Positions 43,987 through 59,343 of a stretch of DNA of 64,000 nucleotides are shown here, one piece after another. Made by a program: the position numbers and the translations under genes. Every line of letters begins with the position of its first letter. Position 1 is the first letter of the stretch. The stretch comes from an uncultured Spirochaetota bacterium (GTDB lineage Bacteria; Spirochaetota; B62-G9; DRHN01): NCBI GenBank assembly GCA_964521865.1, contig CAZFTJ010000003.1, forward strand, positions 183,745 to 247,744, written 5' to 3'. Under the pieces are notes generated by a model. It did not search any database and was not told where the DNA came from. It saw only the letters and a list, made by a program, of their open reading frames with translations.

Positions 43987-44216
43987 AAAAAAACACCTCC
44001 GGTTATTCTTACATCGTTCCCGGTACCGAATGACTGTTCCAGTGGTCCCGGCATCCATTTTTTCTGGTAAAAGGTAAAAGACAAAGCTCTAAAGAAAAGG
44101 GCAAGAAAATTAAAAAAAATTAATTTCCTTTTAATGGAGATTTAATCCTGATGCTTTATATATAAGTACATTGAGCCTAAAGCTCAAATAAAAAATTTTT
44201 TCCAGGAGGTGTTGTT

Positions 44217-44723
44217 ATGACACTTAAAAAAAGATTCAAGATTGTTGCCGTGTCGATACTGGCGGGAAGTTTCGTTTTACTGAGTGTTGCAGGGTTGCAG
44301 GCTCAGGGCAGCAGGACAAAACAGACAGATACAAGCAACAAAGGATCGATTTATGCGGGCGAACACGAAAAAGGCACAGCGCAGGGAGATGCCGAGCTTG
44401 CCGGGCAGGCCAGGATAACCGCAGCTGATGCTGTAAAGGCAGCTTCAAATGCCTATCCCGGGTATACGACAGATAGGGTTGAAATCGAGAATGAGAATGG
44501 TTACCTTATCTACTCCGTAAAAATGCTCGATAAATCCGGAAAGGTTTTACATGTAAAGGTAGATGCGGGCGATGCAAAGATTTTAGCGGAAGATAAGTCT
44601 GCCGATAATGACGGCGAAACCAACGACTCAAGGAGAGAAAGTGAAAAGAACGGAAATGAGCATGAGAATGGACATGATACGGACAATAAACAAAACGAAC
44701 AGCAGGGGGAACACGAAGGATAA
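44217..44723 (+). CDS. Secreted PepSY-domain protein with acidic low-complexity tail
   Basis: Signal peptide, PepSY-like core (ITAADAVKAASNAYPGYTTDRVEIENENGYLIYSVKMLDKSGKVLHVKVDAGDAKIL), then an Asp/Glu/Asn/His-rich tail. Confidence 0.6.
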   Translation: MTLKKRFKIVAVSILAGSFVLLSVAGLQAQGSRTKQTDTSNKGSIYAGEHEKGTAQGDAELAGQARITAADAVKAASNAYPGYTTDRVEIENENGYLIYSVKMLDKSGKVLHVKVDAGDAKILAEDKSADNDGETNDSRRESEKNGNEHENGHDTDNKQNEQQGEHEG

Positions 44724-44754
44724 TTTGAAAGAATAAAAACCCCATGCTTTGTAA

Positions 44755-44790
44755 GCTTCCGCCCTGTTAAAAGGGCAGAAGCTTTTTTTT
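44755..44790 (+). terminator. Rho-independent terminator after the PepSY gene
   Basis: GCTTCCGCCCT-gttaaa-AGGGCAGAAGC (10 of 11 bp paired) followed by T8. Confidence 0.65.
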
Positions 44791-44999
44791 GATTTTTTTG
44801 CAGCCCAGAAAATAAAAGAATCGACCGTTTATGTCGTTTCATGAAAGTTGCTTCCTGATACTCGATTGACCTGACGTCCCTGCCTCGATAAACAATTCAA
44901 TACAAGATTAAAAAATTTTAATTTTTAACTCATCCCTGTTTAATGTTCTGTTCGTATATATGTCGAGAGGAAAAAGAAATTTATCAAGGGGGTGCAATC

Positions 45000-45629
45000 A
45001 TGAAGGGAATGCGATTGGTAGTAGTCGTTACTGTAATTTTGGTCGGTGCAGTCTTTACCGGATGCAGTAAAAAAAATACGTCTGCCGAAAACAGGGCCTC
45101 TTCCTCACAAAACATGCACGCAGATACTCAACGTGCAGAAAAACCGGTTGCTCCGGAAAAAAATCCGCCCGGAGATATTCCCGATAACCAGGCATTTGTT
45201 ACATATATTTCCGCTGCAGGCGGTTATGAGCTCGAGGTCCCTGAAGGCTGGGCGCGGAAAACAAACGGTATGAATGTCGTTTTCACAGAAAAATTGGATG
45301 GACTTTCCACCGTCCTTACAAATTCATCGCAAACACCCGGTGTAGAGAGTATTCGCGCCGATCAAGCTGAAAAACTGAAAAAAACAGGAAGGGCTGTAAC
45401 AATTAAGAAAATTAAGGATGTAAAACTTGCAAGCGGACCCGCTGTGCTCATGGTGTATGAATCCAACTCCGAGCCGGATCCTGTTACCGCTAAACAGATG
45501 CGTCTCGAAAATGATACATTTTTCTTTTTTAAAAAGGGCAGGATTGCCGAGCTCAGATTATGGGCGCCTCTCGGTGCCGATAATGTCGACCAGTGGAAGC
45601 GAATCTCAAATAGTTTCAGATGGAGGTAA
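45000..45629 (+). CDS. Lipoprotein of unknown function, first gene of the ABC cassette
   Basis: Start at ATG 45000 preceded by AAGGGGG; signal peptide with lipobox VFTGC; no recognisable catalytic motif. Confidence 0.55.
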   Translation: MKGMRLVVVVTVILVGAVFTGCSKKNTSAENRASSSQNMHADTQRAEKPVAPEKNPPGDIPDNQAFVTYISAAGGYELEVPEGWARKTNGMNVVFTEKLDGLSTVLTNSSQTPGVESIRADQAEKLKKTGRAVTIKKIKDVKLASGPAVLMVYESNSEPDPVTAKQMRLENDTFFFFKKGRIAELRLWAPLGADNVDQWKRISNSFRWR

Positions 45630-45630
45630 T

Positions 45631-46296
45631 ATGAGAGTACTGGAGGGATTCGACATATACCGTTTTTATCATGTAGAAGAGGAAGAAACGCTCGCCTTGC
45701 GAGGAGTGAGTATTCATGTCGATTCGGGAGAAATTGTTGCGGTGCAGGGCCCTTCCGGCAGCGGCAAATCCACACTCCTGGCATGCCTCGCAGGGCTCGA
45801 CGAGCCCGACGGCGGATGTGTAATGCTTTTGGGTAAACGGATCACAAGGCGTGCGGAGGTGGAACGCGCAAAAATACGCGCCCGGATGCTCGGCATAATG
45901 CTCCAGTCTGGAAATCTCCTTGATCATCTTTCTGTCGAGGACAATATAAGGCTCCAAATGCATATTGCGGAAAAGATCAATAAAAAACGGCTGGGAGAAT
46001 TAATTGAAATGACAGGATTAATACACCGCGGGCACGCGTATCCCTCACAAATCTCAGGAGGGGAAGCTGCGCGTGCCGGTCTTGCCGTTGCAATTGCCGC
46101 AGAGCCGATACTGCTGCTTGCAGACGAGCCGACCAGTGAAGTTGACGCCGAAACCGAGCGGCGTATTTTACAACTGCTTGACTGCTATAGAAAAAATGGG
46201 GGGGCGGTACTTGTTGTTACGCACAGCGATGCAGTGGCGCAATTTGCCGACCGTACCATCCATTTGTTTGATGGGAGGATTTTGGAAAATGTCTAA
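45631..46296 (+). CDS. ABC transporter ATP-binding protein with degenerate signature motif
   Basis: Walker A GPSGSGKST, Walker B LLLADEPTSEVD, H-loop VTHS; signature reads ISGGEAARAGLAVA rather than LSGGQQQR. Confidence 0.8.
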   Translation: MRVLEGFDIYRFYHVEEEETLALRGVSIHVDSGEIVAVQGPSGSGKSTLLACLAGLDEPDGGCVMLLGKRITRRAEVERAKIRARMLGIMLQSGNLLDHLSVEDNIRLQMHIAEKINKKRLGELIEMTGLIHRGHAYPSQISGGEAARAGLAVAIAAEPILLLADEPTSEVDAETERRILQLLDCYRKNGGAVLVVTHSDAVAQFADRTIHLFDGRILENV

Positions 46297-46951
46297 TACA
46301 TATGTCAATATGCAGGATATCTGGAGAATTTATGTACGGGGAAAGACTATTATTACTGCACTTGATTCGATCTATTGTAAAGTGCATACCGGTGATCGAA
46401 TTGCAGTGGTCGGACCATCGGGAAGCGGCAAATCAACGCTGCTGCATATCATGGGCGGGCTTGATACACCGACAAAAGGAACTATCGCCTGGCCCGCCTT
46501 CGGCAGGAAAGAGCACCTCCGCCCTGAAGAAGTCGGCTTTGTATTTCAATCAGTCAGCCTCTTCCCCTCGCTCACCATACTGGAAAACATCGAGCTCCCG
46601 CTTCTGCTCAGATATATAAAACCGTTGGAGGCGCTGGATTCCGCCATGACGGCTCTTAAATACATGGAGCTTGAGCCGATTGCGTATAAATTACCGGAGG
46701 AAGTTTCCGGAGGTCAAGCCCAACGTGTTGCAGTCGCCCGTGCACTGGCATCCAACCCGCGACTAATTCTTGCAGATGAACCGACCGGACAGCTCGATCA
46801 TCCCACTGCGGAGCATCTTTTTGATTTACTTCTTAAATCCCTGGAATCATCGGAAATGGCGCTGGTCGTCGCAACTCACGATTCTTTGATAGCGAGGCGG
46901 ATGGATAAAATCTGGCACATGAAGCACGGCAGGATGGAGGTGTTAAAATGA
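46289..46951 (+). CDS. ABC transporter ATP-binding protein with canonical motifs
   Basis: Walker A GPSGSGKST, signature VSGGQAQRVAVARA, Walker B LILADEPTGQLD, H-loop ATHD. ATG overlaps the upstream stop. Confidence 0.82.
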   Translation: MSNTYVNMQDIWRIYVRGKTIITALDSIYCKVHTGDRIAVVGPSGSGKSTLLHIMGGLDTPTKGTIAWPAFGRKEHLRPEEVGFVFQSVSLFPSLTILENIELPLLLRYIKPLEALDSAMTALKYMELEPIAYKLPEEVSGGQAQRVAVARALASNPRLILADEPTGQLDHPTAEHLFDLLLKSLESSEMALVVATHDSLIARRMDKIWHMKHGRMEVLK

Positions 46952-49602
46952 TTTTCCTGTTCCGATGGATCAAAGGGATATTTATCTCTCGTTCGGGCAG
47001 CCTCCTCGGAGCAATAGCCGGAACAGCTCTCACCATGACTTTTCTCGCATCCCTCGGAATATTTCTTGCTGCGAGCTCTGCAACATTGACTAAACGGGCG
47101 GTATCGGACGTTCCGGTGGACTGGCAGATACTGCTCACGTCCAGCGCGAAAGAGCATAAAATCACAGAAGCAATCGGGAAAACGACCAAATACACAGCAC
47201 TGGAAAAAGTCGGCTATGCAAATGTGAGCGGATTTTCGGCAGCAACAGGGGGAACGGTTCAGACTACCGGACCTGGAAAGGTACTTGGAATCGGCCCGGG
47301 TTACCTGGACAGTTTTCCAAGGGAAATACGCTCGCTTACGGGTTTGAAACAGGGGGTGCTTGTTTTTCAGCAAACCGCAGCAAACCTGCATGTGAAAGAG
47401 GGGAATATCGTTACCGTAATGAGAACAGGATTAGCGCCGGTTCAGGTAAAGGTTGAGGGTATAGTCGATCTTCCTTACGCGGATTCATTATTTCAGGCAG
47501 TAGGAGTCCCACCGGGCATGGCTCCAAAAGCACCCCCGGATAACGTACTTTTAATGCCGGAAAGCAGGTGGCACGCCATTTTCGATCCCCAGGCCCGGAT
47601 ACGACCCGATACGGTACATGTACAATATCACATCCGTCTTGCGCATAACCTGCCTGCCGATCCGACGTCAGCATATACGTATGTAAAACAACTGGCCAAT
47701 AACCTGGAAGCTCGAATTGCAGGCAGTGGAATCGTGGGAAACAACATCGCCGCACGCCTGCTGGCAGTGCGTGCAGATGCGCTTTACGCCCGGGTACTCT
47801 TCCTCTTCCTGGGCCTGCCGGGCGCAATTCTCGCAATTCTGTTAACAGTATCCATTACAGCCTCCGGAAAGAACCACAGGCTTCAGGAACAGGTCCTGCT
47901 CAGAACCAGGGGAGCCTCAATCGGACAGATCCTGAAGTTTGAATCTTTGGAAGCTTTTATAACAGGGATATGCGGTGTGATTGTGGGAACGGCCCTCGTC
48001 TATTTAACCGAAAAGTTCCTTGCACCGGGTGCCATGATGAACAGATCGGCCATATTCTGGATTTCAGGTTCAGGCGCAGCAGGTCTTATCCTCGCCGTAA
48101 CCGGTGTAATGTACCCTGCATGGAAGCACGCCCGTTTGTTTACGGTATCGTCGTCAAGATCCCTTGTAAGGACTTCTGGAAGGTCTCTATGGCAGAAACT
48201 CTATCTTGATTTTATTTTAATCGCTTCTTCATTACTCATATACTGGAGAATCAGTAGTCTGGGGTACCAGGTAGTGCTGGCTCCTGAAGGCGTACCCCAG
48301 GCAACTGTACACTACGATGCCTTTATTGCGCCTTTTTGCCTGTGGGTTGGCGGTGTTTTATTTACCGTTCGTTTCTGGGAAAACGGCCTTAACCGGCGCC
48401 GTATTATTTCAAAACTTTTACACCCGGTTGCAGGGAACCTGTCGGGGGTTGTTGCCGCATCTCTCGGCCGCCAGCGTACGAGCCTTACACGCGGTGTTAT
48501 TTTAGTCGCCCTTGCGATATCCTTTGCCGTCTCCACGGCAATCTTTAATACGACCTACAATGCTCAGTCGGTGGTGGACGCACAGCTTACCAACGGTTCC
48601 GATGTAACGATACGGGGTTTGACAACAGCACCGCCTGATAAAATAATATCTCAGTTGAATAATCTCGAGGGAGTCTCTGCAGTACAGCCGATGATGCACA
48701 GATTTGCCTATGTTGGGAACGATCTGCAGGATATCTACGGTATCGACCCAAAACATATCGGAAAGGCAACAAGTATATCAAACGCCTATTTTGCAAACGG
48801 CAATGCAAAAGAGGCGCTTTCCCTGCTCGTTCAACAACCGGATGGGGTTCTGGTTTCAGAGGAGACAAGGCGTGATTTCCAGCTTCATAAAGGAGATCGT
48901 TTAAATCTCCGACTGCAATTTGCAAACGATCATCAGTACCATATTGTACCTTTCAGGTATGTGGGAGTAGTGCGTGAGTTTCCCACCGCACCGACCGACT
49001 CCTTCCTTGTCGCAAATTCCAGTTATATTGCACAGAAAACAAAGATCAATGCAAAAGAAATAGTTTTAATAAAGGCAAGCGGCAATCCGACAAACCTTGG
49101 AGAGAAAGTAAAAAAGATTGTTGCTCCGCTTCCGGGTGCGAGAGTTACGGACATCGGCTCTACACAAAAAGTGATAAGTTCAAGTCTGACTTCAATAAAT
49201 CTACAAAGGCTCACCCGGTTGGAACTTGTTTTTGCAGTGTTGCTGGTAATGGGTGCAACCGGCTTGATACTTGGCCTCGGATTGAATGAGCGAAGGCGTA
49301 ATTTTGCAATTCTTGATGCACTCGGAGCGAAACGCAGTCAACTCGGTGCATTCATCTGGAGTGAAGGTATCCTGATGCTCATCGGGGGAATAATAATCGG
49401 CATGCTGCTTGGGTTTGGCATTGCTCATATACTTGTAAAGGTATTGAAAGGCGTTTTCGATCCCCCGCCGGAGCACCTCGTGATCCCGTGGGTGTACCTC
49501 GGATTGCTCGTCGCTGCTTCCGTTTCTTCTACAATTATTGCCGTGTTGGGAATGAAGTTCATTTCCCATCGACCGTTGACGGAAGAGCTCAGGAAATTGT
49601 AG
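46948..49602 (+). CDS. Large FtsX/MacB-type ABC permease
   Basis: 884 aa; two modules, each a large extracytoplasmic domain followed by a helical bundle with FtsX-type C-terminal helices. Start overlaps the preceding ATPase stop. Confidence 0.78.
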   Translation: MIFLFRWIKGIFISRSGSLLGAIAGTALTMTFLASLGIFLAASSATLTKRAVSDVPVDWQILLTSSAKEHKITEAIGKTTKYTALEKVGYANVSGFSAATGGTVQTTGPGKVLGIGPGYLDSFPREIRSLTGLKQGVLVFQQTAANLHVKEGNIVTVMRTGLAPVQVKVEGIVDLPYADSLFQAVGVPPGMAPKAPPDNVLLMPESRWHAIFDPQARIRPDTVHVQYHIRLAHNLPADPTSAYTYVKQLANNLEARIAGSGIVGNNIAARLLAVRADALYARVLFLFLGLPGAILAILLTVSITASGKNHRLQEQVLLRTRGASIGQILKFESLEAFITGICGVIVGTALVYLTEKFLAPGAMMNRSAIFWISGSGAAGLILAVTGVMYPAWKHARLFTVSSSRSLVRTSGRSLWQKLYLDFILIASSLLIYWRISSLGYQVVLAPEGVPQATVHYDAFIAPFCLWVGGVLFTVRFWENGLNRRRIISKLLHPVAGNLSGVVAASLGRQRTSLTRGVILVALAISFAVSTAIFNTTYNAQSVVDAQLTNGSDVTIRGLTTAPPDKIISQLNNLEGVSAVQPMMHRFAYVGNDLQDIYGIDPKHIGKATSISNAYFANGNAKEALSLLVQQPDGVLVSEETRRDFQLHKGDRLNLRLQFANDHQYHIVPFRYVGVVREFPTAPTDSFLVANSSYIAQKTKINAKEIVLIKASGNPTNLGEKVKKIVAPLPGARVTDIGSTQKVISSSLTSINLQRLTRLELVFAVLLVMGATGLILGLGLNERRRNFAILDALGAKRSQLGAFIWSEGILMLIGGIIIGMLLGFGIAHILVKVLKGVFDPPPEHLVIPWVYLGLLVAASVSSTIIAVLGMKFISHRPLTEELRKL

Positions 49603-52009
49603 ATGTATTGCGCCCAGGAAAACTGAAGTAGGCCGCCGAGTATAAACCCGCTGCAATTAAATAAATCATAGTAAAACCAAGCTGCATGGAAAGAATACTT
49701 GTTACAACGGTTGCAAAAACAGATACCGAACCGTTGATGGATAACGCCCACGGGAGAAATTTTTCCCTACGGTTGGAAATTATCTGCAATCCAAGTGGAA
49801 AAGGGAAGCCCATAAAAAACCCAAGAGGGGCGAGAGCAATAAGTGCAATAACAATGCGAATAATTACCGGAAACCCAATGAGCGTTCCAAAAAGAGGAGT
49901 AAATAAAAACACATTTAGCAAAAGTGATCCGATAACTCCGGATACTCCCACCGTAATTCCTCGTAACGGTCTATCCGTATATCTGCTCGAAAATTGCGAG
50001 CCGAGCCCGGAAAAAACAAGCAGTGCGGAAATTACAAATGCCACGCTGTAGAGTGGATTTGCAAGGAATAGGGTCAACTTCTGAATAACGGCAATCTCAA
50101 TAAACATAAAACCCATCCCCAAAACGGAAAAGTAAATGATTACCCGGCATTTTCCCTTTTCCTTCGAAAATCTCCTGTGGGAAAAAAGCAATGGAAACGA
50201 AATAATCAGAAAGCTAAAGATTATCCCCTGGAACAAAGTGGCCCAGAGGAGGAGGTAGCCCCATTCGGAATACGGTATAGTATCCATTCCGCCGTTCAAG
50301 CCAAAAAGGTTTAAAGAAGTCGAAAAACGTAGAAACTGGTTGAAATACGGTTTATTGTCGCTGGGTGGATTTATATTAAAAAAATAGGAATTGAGGAATG
50401 ACTTTTCCGAGTTTCCAAGATACGCCTCGGCAAGTTTATAGTATAATTCATTATTGATCTGATTATTAATATTGGTATCCTGAGATTTAATGCCTGGAAA
50501 GTATGAAAAATCGGCACTGAGATCACCAACCTTTTTTTTTGTTAACTCAATATCATGGTCGGCAAAAATACCGTTTTTTATCATTACCGAACCCCAATCG
50601 AGTCCGCGGATAAAAATCATCCTTCTTGAAAAATCGCCCGGATGCATCTTTTTTAAATATGAGAAAGATAACGATTCAAGCTTTAATAATGTACGGGGAG
50701 GAGATTTCATATTCATGGAAATGTACAGGATACCGTCTTTTTTTAACCTTGAAATGTATTCGGAGATAGCCTCGGTGGTAAATAGATAGTTTTCTCCGTG
50801 CCCCGTTCCTGATGAAAACGAAATACCGGATGAGACCATTGCAGGAATAAGAATAAGATCGTATTTTCCCTTTTCTCGCTTACAAAAAGACCGCCCGTTA
50901 CTTATCCGAATGCTGAGATTATTCTCATTCCAAAGCCCTGCTGTATATTGTTTAAAGTTTTTATGTATCAAAGAAACAAGCGGCTTGTTCGGCTCTACCG
51001 CGGTAATTCTACGGGCGCCAAGCCTTTCGGCAAACAGGATGGGGTTACCGCCATCTACTCCAAGAATCAATACTTCAGGTTTTTTTTTAATTGAGAAAGG
51101 TAAAGAAAACGGAAGATAGTTTATATATTCGGCATCCTTGTCCTTGAAATTTCTTAAAATGCCCGACGCAGATATTCCATCAATAAAAACACCGTCCTCA
51201 TTGGGTACATCTACTTTATAACTTGAAAGAGAAAGCCCCGGGGCAAAATGAAATTGTTCACTTCTCACTATCTGAATATACCCCAGAGGTGAAGAAACCG
51301 TTTTTATTATCCTGGAATCGGGCGCTTTCAGGGCGTATGAAATATCTTTATATTGAGAAATCTTCAGGCTTATACCAAGAAAATAAGGGACCAAAGCTGC
51401 AACTAATACGATACCAGCAAAAATAGTCTGTCTCATCCATTTATATTTTTTAATCTGAAAAAGCAAAGCCAGTGCACCAAAAAAAATTACAGGAAGCATC
51501 AAATACTGGGGGCTGAGAAAAAACATGATAATAAGGATGGAAATTGCTCCGATTCCGGAACCAAACATATTAAAAAAATAAAGCGTTCCGATTCTTTTCT
51601 TCATCTTTAAGAATGCAAGATTGATAAAAAGAGAGCCGGCAAAAAAGGGCATAAAGTAAATGGCATAGTAGAGACCGAGATAAATTAGCTGTTTTTTATC
51701 CTGATGCAGGCTTTGCGGAACAAAGGGGACCTGCTCACCCAAAATAAAGACATACGCTGAAATAACTATAAAAGCAGAGGCCGACCAGAAGAGCCACTCA
51801 TCCAGGACAGGCTCTATATTGTCCTTATATATCGTAAGTACTGTTGCGGAAAGTCCATAACCGAGAATTGCTATGCTTATAATCATTGCTGCGAAACCGG
51901 AGCTGTTAATAACACTCATAAATCGGATGCTTCCCATTTCCACGGCAAGTGTTGCGATAGATATAAAAAAAACAGAAACGAGGTATCTTTTTGCCATTTT
52001 TATGAACAC
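49589..52009 (-). CDS. Membrane-bound spermidine-synthase-like (aminopropyltransferase-fold) protein
   Basis: 806 aa; many hydrophobic helices at both ends; central soluble region colinear with the spermidine-synthase fold (VLILGVDGGNPILFAERLGARRITAVEPNKPLV; KYDLILI; LKKDGILY). Confidence 0.6.
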   Translation of the reverse strand: MFIKMAKRYLVSVFFISIATLAVEMGSIRFMSVINSSGFAAMIISIAILGYGLSATVLTIYKDNIEPVLDEWLFWSASAFIVISAYVFILGEQVPFVPQSLHQDKKQLIYLGLYYAIYFMPFFAGSLFINLAFLKMKKRIGTLYFFNMFGSGIGAISILIIMFFLSPQYLMLPVIFFGALALLFQIKKYKWMRQTIFAGIVLVAALVPYFLGISLKISQYKDISYALKAPDSRIIKTVSSPLGYIQIVRSEQFHFAPGLSLSSYKVDVPNEDGVFIDGISASGILRNFKDKDAEYINYLPFSLPFSIKKKPEVLILGVDGGNPILFAERLGARRITAVEPNKPLVSLIHKNFKQYTAGLWNENNLSIRISNGRSFCKREKGKYDLILIPAMVSSGISFSSGTGHGENYLFTTEAISEYISRLKKDGILYISMNMKSPPRTLLKLESLSFSYLKKMHPGDFSRRMIFIRGLDWGSVMIKNGIFADHDIELTKKKVGDLSADFSYFPGIKSQDTNINNQINNELYYKLAEAYLGNSEKSFLNSYFFNINPPSDNKPYFNQFLRFSTSLNLFGLNGGMDTIPYSEWGYLLLWATLFQGIIFSFLIISFPLLFSHRRFSKEKGKCRVIIYFSVLGMGFMFIEIAVIQKLTLFLANPLYSVAFVISALLVFSGLGSQFSSRYTDRPLRGITVGVSGVIGSLLLNVFLFTPLFGTLIGFPVIIRIVIALIALAPLGFFMGFPFPLGLQIISNRREKFLPWALSINGSVSVFATVVTSILSMQLGFTMIYLIAAGLYSAAYFSFPGRNTSTIS

Positions 52010-52012
52010 TTC

Positions 52013-52783
52013 TTACGATTTATTATACTTTTCAAGCATCTTGCCGGTGAAGGGGACAAATTTACAGGACCTCAATCGCTGTGTTGTAATTTTACCATCT
52101 TCTTTCTTGTTTATTAACAGCAAGGTCTGCCTGTCAAAGGGATTGCCCACCGGGATAACGATAATACCTCCCGGTTTTAACTGGCGAAGAAGATACACGG
52201 GAACATGGTCGGCAGCACAGGTTACGATAATCTTATCGTATGGAGCATATGAGTCCCAGCCGTAATAACCGTCCCCCGTTTTTCCTTTAATGTTTGAATA
52301 TCCAAGCTCTTTCCATCTTCTGGCGGCCTGTTCTGCAAGCTGTGGAACAATCTCAATGCTATACACCTTTGATGTAATCTGAGATAAAATCGAAGCCTGG
52401 TATCCTGAACCTGAACCGATCTCAAGCACAGAGTCCCCCGGTTTAAGTTCCAGCAGATTTGTCATGTATGCTACAAACCACATATTGGTAATTGTCTGTC
52501 CATATCCAATGGGAAGCGGATACTCTTTATACGTATCATTGCGCTTGCTTTTGGGAACAAAAAATTCACGTGGAACCGCAAGAACCGCTTTAAGAACACT
52601 CTCACTAAAATTAGTGGTTTCGCTGTAATGCGCCACTCTTTCCTTTCGCTGCTTCAGATAGTATTCAGGTGATACATAACTGTACCCCGATAACGGAACG
52701 ACCATACAATAAACGATAACAATTATTGCTAAGCACCTTAATGCCTTCATACCATCCTCCGGTTTACTCAATTTTATCATCAA
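52013..52783 (-). CDS. pcm: Protein-L-isoaspartate O-methyltransferase, with N-terminal signal/anchor
   Basis: SAM-binding motif VLEIGSGSGYQ plus the post-I and motif II/III regions of PIMT (KVYSIEIVPQLAEQA; GGIIVIPVG). Hydrophobic N-terminus suggests export; the start may be M1 or M12. Confidence 0.8.
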   Translation of the reverse strand: MMIKLSKPEDGMKALRCLAIIVIVYCMVVPLSGYSYVSPEYYLKQRKERVAHYSETTNFSESVLKAVLAVPREFFVPKSKRNDTYKEYPLPIGYGQTITNMWFVAYMTNLLELKPGDSVLEIGSGSGYQASILSQITSKVYSIEIVPQLAEQAARRWKELGYSNIKGKTGDGYYGWDSYAPYDKIIVTCAADHVPVYLLRQLKPGGIIVIPVGNPFDRQTLLLINKKEDGKITTQRLRSCKFVPFTGKMLEKYNKS

Positions 52784-52855
52784 TCATTCCAACCTTCTAA
52801 GATACTATTTGCTTTGACATTAAGAAAATAAGGATTAAAAATTAATTGGAGATTA

Positions 52856-52890
52856 AAGGAAGATTAAAACTCTTTAATTTTAATGGGGAG
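52856..52890. repeat. Palindrome-containing 33-nt element, copy 1 (overlaps the 3' end of the histidine kinase gene)
   Basis: AAGGAAGATTAAAACTCTTTAATTTTAATGGGG; about 30 of 33 identical to 56461-56493, with weaker similarity extending to 52811. Contains inverted 7-mers ATTAAAA/TTTTAAT. Confidence 0.6.
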
Positions 52891-54222
52891 AAGAACGGTA
52901 AAAATACTCCCTTTCCCAGGTGTACTTTGGACTTCAACACAGCCCTTATGCGCATCAACTATCCATTTTACGATGGAAAGGCCCAGTCCTGTCCCATCCC
53001 CGCTCCTCGCATCGTCTATCCTGTAGAACCTGTCGAAAATATGATCGAGATGCTCGAGCGGTATTCCTGCACCGCTGTCTTCCACCGTTATTTTCGCACA
53101 CTCGCCTTCTCTATGGAGCCCCACAGTAACCAGTCCATGCTCGCTGTTATACTTTATTCCATTGTCAATCAGATTAATGAACAGCCGTGTAATAAGTGTC
53201 TGATCGACTCGCATTTTAATACTCCTATCACCCTGAAAAACAAGTCTTACTCCGTTTTTCTCCGCTATGCTTCTCATTTCATCAACGACCTCTTCGGCGA
53301 TGATCCCGATATCTATATCTTCTATTTCCATTCTATACTTGTTTTCGTCCCCTCTTGTCAGGTTTAACAACTGAGCTACCATCACACCCATTTTCCTGCT
53401 CTCCTTCAGAATAATCTGCAAAGCTTCTCTGTATTCACTTACCGTTCTATTTCCTGCAAGCGCCTCTTCCGACTGAGCGGAAATAACTGCTATCGGAGTC
53501 CTCAGCTCATGAGATGCATCCGAGGTAAACTGCCTCTCCCTCTTAAATGAGGATTCCAATTTTTCAAGCATATCATCGAAAACTTTCACGAGCCTCCCCA
53601 CCTCGTCTTTAACCTCCGGCAGGTTGAGCCTCTGTGTTAAATCGCCACGCCCAATTGCCTCCGCAGTTCTCGTTATATGATCTATCGGAGCCAACGATTT
53701 TTTTGCGAGAAACAACGCTCCTACAACAGCAATAACTATGCCGGCAGGTACGGCGAACAGTATCATCATTTTCAGAATATCAAGCGTCTCTTTGACAGGA
53801 TTGAGTGAGCGAACCGCACGTACCCATGCAACTATTCTGTTTTCTTCATACACTGCCTGATCGTATACAAGAAAGTTCTCTTCATGTATTTCAAAATTTC
53901 TTATCTTGTTGAACTCCGGAGTAAGCTTGGAAATCTGTGGATAGGGCCTGCTTCCTGCAACTATCCTGTTTTTTACATCATACAGAGTAACGGATGTTCC
54001 GGTGGTTTTAAATTCCTGAAGCTCACTGTTGGTGATATTCCCATTTTCAACCTCTACTGACGATACAACCTGCGCAGCGTGTGCCTTTATAAGCTCTTTC
54101 GTCCCCTGATACATGATCTTTGACATCGAAACATAGATAAATGCACTGAAACCCCCGAGCAGCAGCAGAAGCATTGAGGTGAACCATAGAGTGATCTTTG
54201 CACTGATCGTTAATCTTCTCAC
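52864..54222 (-). CDS. Sensor histidine kinase (two transmembrane segments, HAMP, HisKA, HATPase_c)
   Basis: 452 aa; H-box SHELRTPIAVI, N box LIDNGIKYN, G boxes DSGAGIP and GTGLGLSIV; periplasmic loop between two hydrophobic segments. Confidence 0.88.
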   Translation of the reverse strand: MRRLTISAKITLWFTSMLLLLLGGFSAFIYVSMSKIMYQGTKELIKAHAAQVVSSVEVENGNITNSELQEFKTTGTSVTLYDVKNRIVAGSRPYPQISKLTPEFNKIRNFEIHEENFLVYDQAVYEENRIVAWVRAVRSLNPVKETLDILKMMILFAVPAGIVIAVVGALFLAKKSLAPIDHITRTAEAIGRGDLTQRLNLPEVKDEVGRLVKVFDDMLEKLESSFKRERQFTSDASHELRTPIAVISAQSEEALAGNRTVSEYREALQIILKESRKMGVMVAQLLNLTRGDENKYRMEIEDIDIGIIAEEVVDEMRSIAEKNGVRLVFQGDRSIKMRVDQTLITRLFINLIDNGIKYNSEHGLVTVGLHREGECAKITVEDSGAGIPLEHLDHIFDRFYRIDDARSGDGTGLGLSIVKWIVDAHKGCVEVQSTPGKGSIFTVLLPIKIKEF

Positions 54223-54896
54223 TACTTCTCCTTAAGAATATACCCGCTTCCTCTCAGAGTATGGATCAATTTTGTTTTAAAACCGTCATCGATCTTGCGC
54301 CTTAAATACCGTATGTATACCTCCACGACATTGGAGTTATAGTCAAAGTCGTAATTCCAGACATGTTCTATGATCTGAGACCTTGTCAGGAGTATTCCCT
54401 TGTTTCGCAAGAAATATTCGAGCATGGCGTATTCCTTTGCCGTCAGCTCAATAATTTTTTCACCTCTTTTGGCAATATGCGTTGTCGTATCAAGGGTTAG
54501 ATCCCCAACTCTTAATACCACTTCTCTTTCTTCCCCGCGCCTTCTCAACAGTGCCCTCACTCTTGCTAAAAGCTCGTCGAAAGAAAAAGGTTTGGTCAGA
54601 TAATCATCGGCGCCCATGTCAAGCCCCCTCACCCTGTCTTCAATCGCATCTTTTGCCGTTAAAATCAAAACTGGCGTCGGTTTTTTTCTTATCCTTAATT
54701 TTTGCAGCACCGTAAAACCGTCAATAACAGGAAGCATTAAATCAAGAATTATACAATCGTAATTCACAACTTCAGCGAAATCCAGCCCTTCCTGCCCGTC
54801 CTTAGCCGTATCAACAATATACCCCGCCTCCTTCAATCGCCTGGCTATTGTTTTGAGCAGGGAGGGCTCATCCTCCACAACCAGCATCCTCATCAT
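54222..54896 (-). CDS. OmpR-family response regulator
   Basis: 224 aa; receiver (MLVVEDEP...ILDLMLP...LTAKD) plus winged-helix output domain (VYIRYLRRKID...LRGSGY). Confidence 0.9.
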   Translation of the reverse strand: MMRMLVVEDEPSLLKTIARRLKEAGYIVDTAKDGQEGLDFAEVVNYDCIILDLMLPVIDGFTVLQKLRIRKKPTPVLILTAKDAIEDRVRGLDMGADDYLTKPFSFDELLARVRALLRRRGEEREVVLRVGDLTLDTTTHIAKRGEKIIELTAKEYAMLEYFLRNKGILLTRSQIIEHVWNYDFDYNSNVVEVYIRYLRRKIDDGFKTKLIHTLRGSGYILKEK

Positions 54897-54901
54897 TGGC
54901 C

Positions 54902-54974
54902 CCTTCCTTCATACCTACCCCGGTCATTTCCTGCACACCGATCCTTATTCCGTCAGGATTGGCGACGTTCCTGA
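54902..54974. repeat. Duplicated fragment of the glyA 3' region, immediately upstream of the response-regulator start
   Basis: About 72 nt at around 93% identity to 56722-56793 inside glyA; the fragment translates as NVANPDGIRIGVQEMTGVGMKE and ends at the regulator ATG. Confidence 0.7.
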
Positions 54975-54987
54975 ATAGATTTTTTTA

Positions 54988-55551
54988 TCAATCAATTATA
55001 GGGATTTTTAGCCCGATAGTCGAGGAAATGCCGCTAACATTAAGGTCTTCTATTGACGGTGGAATTAAAAACTTATATTTAATATCCAGGATGAATGATA
55101 ACCTGTTTTTCAAGGGAAACTCAAGGCCTGTATTAATAATGTACCCATACGTGGCTGAATAATACGGTCTTTCAAACCATGGATTCTTGTCGAATTTGAA
55201 AATTACACCGAAACCCGCACCAAAAAAAGGTCTGATCCTGGTATCCGGTTCTGTATTTGTGTATAAAGCAATCAGATTCATTGGAACTATAAGAAGCGTA
55301 TGCCTTTTTCCGTTGTATTTCACCGATGTAAATGTTGCACCTGAAGAAATATTAAAAGATAAGTGTGTCCTTTTATAAACATCGGTTGCAATAATTGCTG
55401 ATGGCGCGATTTTATAAAACTCTTTTGAAACTTCATCTGTAAAATCATAAATACCGAATTGTAGCACTAAATTGTCAGCCAATAACGGTAACGGCGAAAA
55501 AATAATTAAAAGAACAAAGAGCTTATAAATCGAAATCTTCGATAACTTCAT
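54988..55551 (-). CDS. Putative outer-membrane beta-barrel protein
   Basis: Signal peptide (KLFVLLIIFSPLPLLA), then alternating hydrophobic/aromatic strands; ends IPIID without a typical terminal aromatic residue. Start at ATG 55551. Confidence 0.45.
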   Translation of the reverse strand: MKLSKISIYKLFVLLIIFSPLPLLADNLVLQFGIYDFTDEVSKEFYKIAPSAIIATDVYKRTHLSFNISSGATFTSVKYNGKRHTLLIVPMNLIALYTNTEPDTRIRPFFGAGFGVIFKFDKNPWFERPYYSATYGYIINTGLEFPLKNRLSFILDIKYKFLIPPSIEDLNVSGISSTIGLKIPIID

Positions 55552-56365
55552 TAAAAATTCCAATCGTTTTAATATTTATTCTGTTCGTTTTTTCATAAAT
55601 AGAAACTTTAAGGAAATGATAAAAATCTTCACCATATCCATAATCCAAAGGCGCGCCCGCACCTCCAGTAGTGATATACGTAACATTATCCTTTACAAAT
55701 TTATTATATGAATGTTCGTGCGAAACAATAACGGCTTTTATTTTATCGTACAAAGTGAAAAGATGATGGACCTCGTCTGCATTTTTCATATTTGTGCCTT
55801 TATATACGCCTTGAGGATAAAGGGGGTGGTGAATAAAGATAAAAACATTTTTGATGTCAGGTTTAGAAGCTGCGGAATCCAATTGATTCTTTAACCAATT
55901 GAATTGTTTTAGACCAATGCTATTTTCTTCATTACGAATATAGGAATCAAGAATTATAAAATATGAATGTGAATAACCAAATGAAAAATAAAACGTATCC
56001 CTTGATATACCGGTTTGTTCTTTAAAAATTTCTTCTGATTTTTTATCATTCCCTTCATGATTTCCCCTTGCTATATAAAGCGGCATTTTATCTGTGAGGG
56101 GTTTAGAATAATGCCAGAAATCCGCCCATTCGACCTCATTGCCACTTTTTTTCATAATATCGCCATTGCATATAGCAAATTTAGGAGTAGGCTCAATGGT
56201 TCTCATATATTCTACAAGCTTACCGTATACTCCAAATCCCTGTCTCAAATCACCGAACACAACAAACGACCAATCCTCATCAGAAGGCTCAATTTGTACT
56301 ACAGAACAGGACGGAATAAGTATTATGATTGCTATAAATACTTTTTTTAAAATTTTTAAGACCAT
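55523..56365 (-). CDS. Calcineurin-like metallophosphoesterase, probable lipoprotein
   Basis: Metallophosphatase motifs GDLRQ, GDIM, GNHE and IHHP...HEH; N-terminal signal with LIPSC lipobox. Confidence 0.75.
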   Translation of the reverse strand: MVLKILKKVFIAIIILIPSCSVVQIEPSDEDWSFVVFGDLRQGFGVYGKLVEYMRTIEPTPKFAICNGDIMKKSGNEVEWADFWHYSKPLTDKMPLYIARGNHEGNDKKSEEIFKEQTGISRDTFYFSFGYSHSYFIILDSYIRNEENSIGLKQFNWLKNQLDSAASKPDIKNVFIFIHHPLYPQGVYKGTNMKNADEVHHLFTLYDKIKAVIVSHEHSYNKFVKDNVTYITTGGAGAPLDYGYGEDFYHFLKVSIYEKTNRINIKTIGIFNEVIEDFDL

Positions 56366-56460
56366 ACCGACCCGGCACTGTACATATAATCGAGGTATTT
56401 GTTTTAAGACATATACACATTATTTAAGGTAGCTTAAGGCTTGAACATTAAAGGAAAATT

Positions 56461-56496
56461 AAGGGAAGATTAAAACTTTTTAATTTTAACGGGTGG
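56461..56496. repeat. Palindrome-containing 33-nt element, copy 2 (upstream of the metallophosphoesterase gene)
   Basis: AAGGGAAGATTAAAACTTTTTAATTTTAACGGG; similarity to copy 1 extends to about 56439. No kinase gene is attached here. Confidence 0.6.
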
Positions 56497-56566
56497 CGCC
56501 TTTTATTTTTTTCTGCAAATGAGATTTTTCCAAACACGTCGATAAACAGATGCCCGGTTTTCGCGT

Positions 56567-57841
56567 TTACAGCCTGTTCGGCGATTCGAGCTCTGATAGA
56601 AGCTCGTCAAATGAATACTTCACCGTTTCGAAGTTTTCACGGAATTTATTGACCCTTTCCCTCACTTCCTTACCCTTCTGAATGCAGAAGGCAATGAAGT
56701 CGGCAATCTGCTCCATTTCTTCCTCCTTCATACCTACCCTGGTCATCTCCTGCACCCCGATTCTTATTCCGTCAGGATTGGCGACGTTCCTGAGCGGCTC
56801 ATGGGGAAGTATATTCATATTCAGGATAATATCGTTCTCCTTTAGAAGGTTCGCCACCATTTTCCCGCCTCCGTACTCTTTGACATCGGCCGCAATCTGA
56901 TGGGACTCGGTAAACCCGAACTCCTCGGCAACCACATTGAATTTTTTATGTTTCATCGCCCTTCCGAGTGCTTTCGCATTTTTAACTACCTGATTACTGT
57001 ACTCCTTCCCGAAACTGATGATCTCCTGGGTCGCGACTGCAAGTCCGACCAGGGTATCGAGGTGATGATTGCTCGATGAGCCCGGGAAGGCACCTTTGTC
57101 GACTTTCTGCCACTCCGTGCTGCCCATATTGCTCAGTATTATCCCCCGCTGGGTTCCGAAATAGGTCTTGTGAGTGCTGCCGGTAACGATGAATGCACCC
57201 TCGCCGATGGGATCCTGAAACATGCCGCCGGCAATAAGACCGAGCACATGGGCCGCGTCGTATACCATTTTTATTCGATATTCGGAACAGATGTCTCTGA
57301 GCTCCCTGAGGGGCTCGGGAAAGAGAAAGAGGCTCTTGCCGAAGATGAGCATCCGTGGCCTGCACACATGAATGAGCTCTTTCGTGCGTTCGATATCGAT
57401 ATGAAACCCATCTCTCGAAAGTGGAAAATCAATGACATTCTTTGTAAATTTACCGACCGATCCGGCAAGATGGTGGCTGATATGCCCGCCGCCCGGAGTT
57501 GAGTTAACCATAACGATATCGCCGTTTGCAATAAAACTGGAAAATACCGCTTCATTTGCGTTGGTTCCGCTTATCGGGCGGACATCTGCATGTGAGCATC
57601 GGAAAAGCGTCTTAATATCGTTTCTGAGATCGCTTTCGATTTTGTCGATGAACTCCGTACCCTGATAGTACCGTTCGCCCGGATGTCCCTCCGCATATCG
57701 GTGCGCAAAATCCGACCCTGCAAGCTGCCGGACGGTTTGAGACATAATGTTCTCGCTCGCAATGAGATTCACCGTCCTTCTTCTCCATTCATTCTGCTTC
57801 CTGACACTCTCATAGAGATTTCTCACATATTTCTCAAGCAT
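56567..57841 (-). CDS. glyA: Serine hydroxymethyltransferase
   Basis: SHMT motifs (NLIASENIMS; PLP-lysine region VTGSTHKTYFGTQRG). Start at ATG 57841 preceded by AAAGGAG; the track ORF begins 45 nt earlier. Confidence 0.8.
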   Translation of the reverse strand: MLEKYVRNLYESVRKQNEWRRRTVNLIASENIMSQTVRQLAGSDFAHRYAEGHPGERYYQGTEFIDKIESDLRNDIKTLFRCSHADVRPISGTNANEAVFSSFIANGDIVMVNSTPGGGHISHHLAGSVGKFTKNVIDFPLSRDGFHIDIERTKELIHVCRPRMLIFGKSLFLFPEPLRELRDICSEYRIKMVYDAAHVLGLIAGGMFQDPIGEGAFIVTGSTHKTYFGTQRGIILSNMGSTEWQKVDKGAFPGSSSNHHLDTLVGLAVATQEIISFGKEYSNQVVKNAKALGRAMKHKKFNVVAEEFGFTESHQIAADVKEYGGGKMVANLLKENDIILNMNILPHEPLRNVANPDGIRIGVQEMTRVGMKEEEMEQIADFIAFCIQKGKEVRERVNKFRENFETVKYSFDELLSELESPNRL

Positions 57842-57870
57842 GTTCTTTCCCCAGCTCCTTTCCGAAGAAG

Positions 57871-57906
57871 GGTATAATAAAAACACCCCCGCGAAGCAGA
57901 GGTGTT
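57871..57906 (-). terminator. Stem-loop plus U-run directly upstream of the glyA ribosome-binding site (terminator of the upstream gene, or an attenuator)
   Basis: Minus-strand reading: ACACCTCTGC-ttc-GCGGGGGTGT followed by TTTTTATTAT; sits 30-60 nt upstream of the glyA ATG. Confidence 0.4.
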
Positions 57907-58062
57907 AGAAAAGTACTACATTTATCCCCGTTTGAAAACTCCTCGTTTGTATAACCCTGTTTTGTTCAATAGAGATTTCACGCGAACGGGAGCCGTATGA
58001 CCTGCGCCTGTAAACCGTATCGCTTTGACCGCCCTATAGCCGTAATTTTGCCCTGCCTCAGG

Positions 58063-58965
58063 TCATTCGACCGAGGCACCCATCGAAGCTTTGGGCGGCG
58101 TTACGTCTGTGAAGAAACTCAGCTCCTGAGGATCTGATTCGTTTCCGAGGTTGTCGACCGCTTTCACCCTGAGGACATGGCGTCCCGGCTTCTGTACCAT
58201 GAAGGGGCTCGTATACGCAACGTACTCACTGCCGTCAAGGGAAACAAGAATATCCCGCACGCCGGACATGCCGTCGTTTGCACTGAGTGAATACTCGTTT
58301 GACCTGTTCGTGTAATTAATTCCGTCAACCACAACAAATTGGTCCTCTGGTGTAATGCGCACTACCGGAGGGGTGCTGTCAACATATCCTTCCACCGTGA
58401 ATTCGGCCGTTTTGTTTCCGACATTATCGACTGTATATGCGGTTGCGCTGTGGCGGCCTTCCTGAGTTATGACCATCGGTTCGGTATATGCGATATACCC
58501 GCTGTCGTCAAGGGATACGTAAATCGAATCGACGCCCGAGAGATTGTCCTCTGCCCAGAGCACAATCGCGCTTTTTGTCGATATGTATATTTTACCGTTG
58601 TTGACAAAGAGCGGACCGTCTACCGAGGCAATACCGTCGGGCGGAGTCCCGTCGACGATGACCGAATAAATCTGTTCACTGCTTATATTGTCCGTTTTAT
58701 CTATCGCCCTGTACACGATAATGTGTCTGCCCTCTGTCGAGAAACTGATCGGGCCGTTGTACACCTGAAGAGCGGATCCGTCCACACTGTACTGAATTTC
58801 CTTCAAACTCGATTCATTGTCATTTGCGGACAAAACAAAGCTCGCTGTCATGGGGACATAATCGATAATTCCGTCGTTATAGATCCTCATTTCCTGTCCG
58901 CTCAGAATCTGCAGGGAGCATACACCGAATATGAGAATAAATGATGTGACAAGCCATTTTTTCAT
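58063..58965 (-). CDS. Secreted protein with three tandem Ig-like repeats of about 75 aa
   Basis: Signal peptide (MKKWLVTSFILIFGVCSL); three internal repeats sharing the pattern SxxDxxSGV..I.VSLDxSxY.AYT.P......GRH. Confidence 0.55.
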   Translation of the reverse strand: MKKWLVTSFILIFGVCSLQILSGQEMRIYNDGIIDYVPMTASFVLSANDNESSLKEIQYSVDGSALQVYNGPISFSTEGRHIIVYRAIDKTDNISSEQIYSVIVDGTPPDGIASVDGPLFVNNGKIYISTKSAIVLWAEDNLSGVDSIYVSLDDSGYIAYTEPMVITQEGRHSATAYTVDNVGNKTAEFTVEGYVDSTPPVVRITPEDQFVVVDGINYTNRSNEYSLSANDGMSGVRDILVSLDGSEYVAYTSPFMVQKPGRHVLRVKAVDNLGNESDPQELSFFTDVTPPKASMGASVE

Positions 58966-59343
58966 TGCGAACCCCTCCTCGATTTTTTCTATGGTTTTGT
59001 CAATTAAACTCCGGTTATTCGGACGCTTCGCATCCGGATAGTACCAACGGTTAGCGGATATAACCCTCCTTGCATATCCTGGAGGACTTGCCGCTTGACG
59101 GCGGCATTATTTATACCAGAATTCTATGCTCAAGGACATCTATTACAATGTCCTGCAGTTGTATTCTGCAGGTAAAAAACCTGCGGCATGGGCCGGATAG
59201 CACCATGTAGAATTGAAAGTTCGCTTGCATACAGTGTACTTGAAGAACAGCAATTGTCAATGAAAATTGGATGCGAGGTCCCATCGATTATGAAAACGAG
59301 CAATCGAATCAGAGGGGAGCAGCGCCTGATGTTCGCAAACATC

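Follow-up and report, generated by a model that had tools for sequence, protein, structure and literature searches.

Tandem duplications whose join points are stabilised by later deletions are known from amplification and remodelling at lac in Salmonella and E. coli and from IS-mediated amplifications, and foreign or IS DNA at such join points is common. Two other kinds of rearrangement are close to the one described here. SPDIR copies short patches from ectopic genomic sites nearby into a new location with little or no homology at the junctions, and its products are microindels that replace a short stretch. Homologous recombination between species leaves tracts in which a heterologous insertion can be carried between crossovers in conserved flanks. 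Gene-fragment remnants (pseudogene relics) are short, decaying, non-translated pieces of genes in spacers. Amplification mediated by IS1 has been reported (PMC11253626).

The locus studied here shares traits with each of these. It lies in a 64-kb stretch of DNA (64,000 nt, called the window throughout and meaning that whole stretch) from an uncultured Spirochaetota bacterium. All the genes involved and both copies of the repeat A/A' are on the minus strand, where the order is glyA[A]-73 nt-B-70 nt-PE-OMP-13 nt-A'-RR-HK[B']-pcm. The features are as follows.

56567..57841, minus strand: glyA, encoding SHMT, full length and intact (Pfam SHMT, 3.4e-69)
56724..56793, minus strand: A, the source segment within intact glyA
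56435..56493, minus strand: B, a copy of the HK 3' end and the sequence downstream of it, 73 nt past the glyA stop and about 70 nt before the PE start
55523..56365, minus strand: PE, a calcineurin-like metallophosphoesterase gene
54988..55563, minus strand: OMP-like ORF of 191 aa, no Pfam match
54988..56365, minus strand: the PE-OMP two-gene cassette, found at a different site in the L003/L018 lineage
54905..54974, minus strand: A', a non-coding 70-nt copy of glyA codons ~349-373 that makes up most of the 91-nt OMP-RR spacer
OMP/A' junction: AAAAATCTATTCAGGAACGTC
54897..54906, minus strand: native RR leader with Shine-Dalgarno sequence (SD), GAAGGGGCCA (GAAGGAGCCA in L003), overlapping the end of A' by 2 nt (GA)
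A'/leader junction: GGTATGAAGGAAGGGGCCAATG
54222..54896, minus strand: RR, an OmpR-type response regulator
52864..54222, minus strand: HK, a HAMP/HisKA/HATPase sensor kinase
52829..52887, minus strand: B', the source of B, comprising the last 8 HK codons (PIKIKEF*) and 35 nt of the HK-pcm spacer
52783->52013, minus strand: pcm
52009->49589, minus strand: membrane protein of 806 aa

A' (54905-54974) aligns with A (56724-56793) without gaps over 70 nt, 66 of which are identical (94.3%). The blastn E value of the pair is 1e-26 against the whole 64-kb window, which holds only these two copies, and identity drops on either side of the limits given. The repeat had been noticed in a reading made from the letters alone (the sequence-only reading), which put it at about 93% over some 72 nt (56722-56793 in glyA); pairwise alignment bears this out with slightly narrower limits, and the aligned identity of 94.3% is well clear of the floor of 80% over 70 nt that this reading had set itself. 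The similarity is thus beyond chance, and one of the two copies (A) sits in a full-length SHMT gene. From the OMP stop (TGA TAA) to the start of A' there are 13 nt, and 8 nt separate its end from the RR ATG (54896). The copy had also been said to translate on into the RR start; in fact its glyA frame reads ...RNVANPDGIRIGVQEMTGVGMKEGANDEDAGCGG*, not ...KEGGQ, and is not the frame of the RR ATG, and the OMP stops TGA TAA stand upstream of it. Three of the four differences between A' and glyA in the window are synonymous in the glyA frame, a pattern that is no evidence of coding constraint because it is not reproduced in the A' copy of the L002 lineage, in which the majority of the differences alter the amino acid. 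Over the repeat, the A copies of the window and L002 are identical and the A' copies differ at 6/70 sites, a comparison confounded by the position of A in a 99% identity tier and of A' in a ~95% tier (see below). Relative to A, the two A' copies have 2 derived changes in common, with 2 (window) and 4 (L002) private changes. As to the SHMT itself (56567-57886), Spirochaetota relatives are 80-99% identical, and the next-best genome matches (~43-46%) are in MAGs of Paceibacterota, Thermoplasmata and Heimdallarchaeota, which makes it an SHMT of archaeal-like type.

Relatives of the locus were collected by a genome scan with the SHMT protein, which gave four uncultured Spirochaetota MAGs, and by a metagenome scan with the OMP protein together with HK and OMP homologue look-ups, which gave further loci. 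The comparison is based on four reference loci that represent three lineages, with further metagenome assemblies of the L002 lineage; L003 and L017/L018 belong to one lineage, their HK being identical. In L004 and L005, where glyA is ~80% identical, surE follows glyA directly and is itself followed by genes colinear with window positions 43987->36000. Because glyA and surE adjoin there, window positions ~44100-56560, which hold PepSY, a lipoprotein-ABC-ABC-FtsX operon, the membrane protein, pcm, HK, RR, OMP and PE, are taken as a 12.5-kb block inserted between these two genes. A locus with a distant HK relative (60%), L024, keeps PepSY, RR-HK and FtsX-ABC-ABC together, and this layout suggests that the two-component/ABC module is a conserved core and PE-OMP an addition.

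The close relative L003/L018 has the unrearranged order: glyA, a 597-nt unrelated non-coding spacer and RR-HK-pcm, with PE-OMP, A' and B all missing at this place. The sequence-only reading had foreseen such an order, with glyA upstream of the regulator and kinase, and this prediction is borne out apart from the 597-nt spacer. A' therefore stands at a synteny breakpoint and is absent from the close relative that lacks the break. Local alignment detected neither a degenerate A' before RR nor a remnant of B after glyA in L003, the scores falling within those of shuffled sequences (p 0.45 and 0.26); on the same scores, short MAFFT matches in L003 (CCTGGCGGGATA; CCATTAAAATTA) were rejected as remnants of the patches. 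The window layout with A' and B is found in the spanning loci of L002 (= L016), ten JGI assemblies (L027-L036) and Logan contigs L020-L022. JGI samples 3300031364 and 3300031255 are among those with the L002 lineage. Another Logan contig, L001, is from the window's own lineage; its ends lie within A and within A', and it bears out the OMP-to-A' junction, which brings the independent assemblies with this junction to eleven.

The L003/L017/L018 lineage has PE-OMP (~90-91% nucleotide identity) directly before the lipoprotein-ABC operon, at the block's far end. In L017/L018 the relocated cassette stands in place of PepSY, and all that is left of this gene is its last codons and its terminator. The right boundary of the cassette is alike in the window and L017, 13 nt past the OMP stop (TGATAA.AAA.TCTAT); past this boundary comes A' in the window and unrelated sequence in L017. 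On the left side the resemblance between the two is convincing only for ~20 nt before the PE ATG (p 0.18 for the whole 69-nt stretch). Since the right boundary is common to two contexts, PE-OMP appears to have moved as a discrete unit at least twice and not to have lain ancestrally between glyA and RR. Two other ancestral positions were considered and rejected. If the far-end site of L018 were ancestral, the intact PepSY at that place in the window and the L002 lineage, of which L017 has only a 3' remnant, would be hard to explain; an ancestral cassette between HK and pcm, followed by a larger duplication, would need three deletions, one of them restoring the exact HK-pcm junction of the relatives.

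Some further sequence elements were seen around these loci. In L017 (1-258 and 4221-4323), an ABC/permease gene junction recurs at 99% in the contig's first 103 nt, and after this 103-nt duplication, immediately upstream of the relocated PE-OMP, lies the N-terminal remnant of an IS4-like transposase. A dispersed non-coding element of ~165 nt is present in L003 (3452-3614, just after the glyA stop), L017 (1999-2160, inverted), the window (59107-59231) and L002 (3284-3336); its copies are 68-80% identical, have internal hairpins and gave no Rfam match, and it may be a MITE-like repeat or an unknown small RNA. A set of 5.8 billion proteins contains just three clusters of homologues of the OMP-like ORF, at 92%, 87% and 57% identity. 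When the window and L002 are compared, the ORF's amino-acid identity (92%) is slightly below its nucleotide identity (94.6%), which suggests relaxed or diversifying selection.

A scan for repeats yielded a second pair, B/B', of 59 nt with 83% identity (E ~1e-10, two copies only). The sequence of B' at the HK end is conserved in L002 and L003. The direct repeats are interleaved (A 56793 .. B 56493 .. cassette .. A' 54974 .. B' 52887), and the novel join is the one between B and A'. No template was found in the window or any locus examined for the 69-nt gap between B and PE or for the 73 nt that follow the glyA stop. B/B' (83%) is more diverged than A/A' (94%), as would be expected with both copies of B free to drift and A held by its coding role; it is also possible that B has a separate, earlier origin and that there were two separate events.

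The sequence-only reading had assigned to the copy the role of supplying the ribosome-binding site of the two-component operon. Comparison with L003 contradicts this: without any copy, L003 has GAAGGAGCCA in the 10 nt before its RR ATG, homologous to GAAGGGGCCA at 54906-54897 in the window. Homology between the window and L003 by blastn begins at 54906 and the glyA homology ends at 54905, so the native SD has been retained; the glyA piece adds a second GAAGG five bases further upstream. What the RR-HK operon did lose is its native 5' region, of ~600 nt as judged by its length in the sister lineage, which has been replaced up to the operon's own SD. The description of the site as a recombination scar with a functional consequence is thus right about the scar and wrong about the consequence, which is this loss of upstream sequence; B/B', the PE-OMP cassette and the transfer of 2.7 kb between lineages (below) had escaped that reading as well. 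The terminator scan, whose hits overall were no commoner than in shuffled sequence, detected no terminator-like site between OMP and RR in the window, and in L017 a clear hairpin and T-run follow the same OMP gene. As RR-HK begins 91 nt behind OMP with no detectable terminator between them, it is probably co-transcribed with the PE-OMP cassette.

The three lineages were then compared gene by gene. The background tree is ((L002, L018), window), with nucleotide identities of 0.89-0.95 between L002 and L018 and of 0.79-0.88 between the window and either of them. Exceptions are the 3' 1 kb of glyA and PE, at 0.99 between the window and L002 and 0.85-0.92 to L018, and OMP, at 0.95 between the window and L002. 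At three-way informative sites L002 turns window-like at 57590-57545 (in glyA) and turns back at 54888-54879 (RR codons 3-6). These site patterns and crossovers indicate that L002 imported by homologous recombination, from a window-like donor, the equivalent of the following segment.

54879..57590, minus strand (L002 10253-12960): tract of ~2.7 kb, 94-99% identical between lineages that are otherwise 80-88% identical

The tract contains the 3' part of glyA, B, PE, OMP, A' and the first few RR codons. Window-L002 identity within it falls into two tiers, 99% up to ~55540 and then ~94-95% to the RR start, which points to more than one import (two overlapping ones) or to a mosaic donor. As in other recombination tracts between species, a heterologous insertion was carried with crossovers in conserved flanks, here glyA and RR; unlike in the usual tracts, the right crossover is only 8-17 nt into RR and so unusually near the heterology, and there are two identity tiers. 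The patches themselves have the affinities of the donor side. A' matches the window-type glyA allele at 94% and the L003-type allele at ~80% (the latter comparison by eye), and B carries bases specific to the B' of the window and not to that of L002 or L003. From these affinities A' and B would have originated in the window lineage once it had separated from the other two, and would have been handed on together. We infer this direction of change from allele similarity and parsimony; none of the loci examined represents a pre-insertion genome of the window lineage, and conceivably the ancestral place of the cassette was between glyA and RR, from which it was displaced in L003/L018.

Taking the repeats, the synteny, the allele affinities and the crossover points together, we consider it likely that A' is a non-functional scar of a rearrangement in the window lineage that placed PE-OMP between glyA and RR-HK, and that the block reached L002 later. 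The order of events that we propose is the following. In the window's own lineage the PE-OMP cassette would have been inserted into the spacer between glyA and RR-HK, flanked by two short patches copied from nearby DNA: on the glyA side B, copied from the 3' end of HK ~2 kb downstream, and on the RR side A', copied from inside glyA ~0.3 kb upstream. This may have come about by either of two routes. One would be a ~3-kb tandem duplication from the 3' part of glyA to the end of HK (A to B') with the cassette at the join point, after which each copy lost by deletion what was redundant in it, copy 1 its RR-HK and copy 2 its glyA tail and spacer; these deletions would also stabilise the join against collapse. 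The other would be one insertion by template switching in several steps, with B and A' as templated filler from within 2 kb. By either route, homologous recombination would later have carried the rearranged block into L002, a second lineage at species level.

The two routes are not separated by the data; the patch sizes of 59 and 70 nt, small and similar, mildly favour template switching. In line with remodelled tandem duplications, the arrangement A..B..A'..B' is what would remain if the segment from A to B' had been duplicated and each copy had lost its redundant part. It differs from them in that only remnants of 70 nt and 59 nt are left, and no intermediate with full duplicate copies was found among 4 genome loci and >12 metagenome loci, in which the window lineage is thinly sampled. 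It differs from IS-linked joins too: there is no IS at the join in the window, and the IS4-like remnant adjoins the cassette in the L017/L018 context. The resemblance to SPDIR lies in short patches that were copied from ectopic nearby sites to a new location with little or no junction homology; SPDIR products, however, are not placed on either side of a 1.4-kb cassette, the present case would take four switches in succession, and a microhomology of 0-2 nt is a weak signature. At the A'/leader junction the overlap is 2 nt (GA), beside a GAAGGAG heptamer that is present in both parents and was not used in register; overall the junctions examined, those of A', have 0-2 nt of microhomology, with none between the cassette and A'. 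Microhomology as slight as this indicates no particular mechanism, and the missing intermediates speak for neither route. Finally, A' resembles gene-fragment remnants as a short, decaying, non-translated piece of a housekeeping gene in a spacer, but its parent glyA is intact 1.8 kb away on the same strand, and A' marks the boundary of a cassette and not the death of a gene.

A reading of the locus as functional rewiring is the strongest competitor of the scar explanation, though an unlikely one in our judgement. It starts from a near-palindromic motif, AAGATTAAAA-N3-TTTAATTTT, located at the following positions (no strand assigned).

56466..56487: motif in B, 101 nt upstream of the PE ATG
52860-52881: motif in B', ~77-100 nt upstream of pcm
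44904-44925: motif 75-95 nt upstream of the ATG of the lipoprotein-ABC-FtsX operon
L017 2253-2273, L018 19322-19342 and L020 10065-10085: motif in relatives

This motif could be an operator of the adjacent two-component system, a candidate proposed from sequence. The copy of the operator or promoter in B would then put the PE-OMP cassette, and by read-through RR-HK, under the system's own control, and A' would be a terminator-free linker. Three exact sites in 64 kb against 0 expected are in favour of it, with the reservation that these very sites supplied the search pattern, which leaves only the third site and its conservation across lineages as independent. That site (44904-44925) is conserved in all three lineages within flanks that are only ~76% identical. 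L024 keeps RR-HK beside the same ABC-FtsX module, the usual layout for a regulator that controls a neighbouring transporter, and the lack of a terminator between OMP and RR fits read-through. On the other hand, the motif is AT-rich and of low complexity, its operator role is putative, and A' makes no evident contribution, having no structure and no internal promoter-like site and differing at 6 of 70 nt between the window and L002. More specifically, and with still lower probability, one template-switching event may have brought the cassette in, copied the operator (B) in front of it and removed the promoter region of RR-HK and any terminator before it, giving a self-regulated five-gene unit that spread across species. 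If this is true, templated filler DNA would have rewired regulation in a bacterium, in a natural case that can be dated.

We regard it as very improbable that A' itself acts as a cis-regulatory leader or uORF controlling RR translation, or shares a trans-acting regulator with the glyA mRNA. A candidate uORF of 19 codons (ATG ACC GGG ... TGA) overlaps the RR start, is open in both the window and L002 and ends inside the RR coding region. Its SD is poor, however, and RR coding in any case constrains its 3' part. A promoter-like site, TCGACT-17-TATAAT at 55023->54995, would make A' the 5' UTR of RR. This best site of the region is in OMP coding sequence, the same hexamers occur in L017 where no RR follows, and the 14 promoter-like hits in the region are not above the 10.6 expected from shuffles. 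An Rfam search (E<=1) of 52500-58200 and of L003 and L017 gave no relevant match. The folding energy of the leader RNA is that of shuffled sequence in both lineages (MFE z +0.28 in the window and -0.25 in L002), and the glyA source segment is likewise indistinguishable from shuffles. A' is also absent from the sister lineage, whose RR-HK is otherwise orthologous. Nor does the repeat show the traits of a mobile element (MITE, IS end or REP), with two copies only in 64 kb, one of them in-frame glyA coding sequence, and no inverted-repeat partner reported. The tests gave no positive evidence for a function of A', and its neutrality is assumed from that lack.

A chimeric assembly or binning join at the short repeat might be suspected in a metagenome-assembled genome, the more so as Logan contigs break exactly inside A and A', which have a 31-nt exact stretch in common, but A and A' differ at 4/70 positions, independent assemblies from 10 JGI samples, a GTDB MAG and a Logan run all contain the OMP-A'-RR junction, and the L002 copy of A' has private substitutions of its own, so that an artefact is ruled out as far as the data allow and has a negligible probability.

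The feature is a rearrangement scar of a known, ordinary kind in an unusually well-documented instance. A' alone is a small, presumably neutral scar, and its value is that of a worked example; for its partner patch B there is a modest chance of a regulatory meaning. Several things can be reconstructed at this locus: a cassette insertion with two patches copied from the neighbourhood, in which the native upstream region was lost and the SD kept; the transfer of the rearranged block to a different species, for which the crossovers can be placed to within ~10-45 nt; and, for the two-component/ABC-transporter island, a motif present at three promoter-proximal sites that is a candidate operator. 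There is a warning for annotation too, as the SHMT match that tblastn gives before the regulator is a relic rather than a gene. For these uncultured Spirochaetota, the findings suggest that the RR-HK operon is probably transcribed from further upstream.
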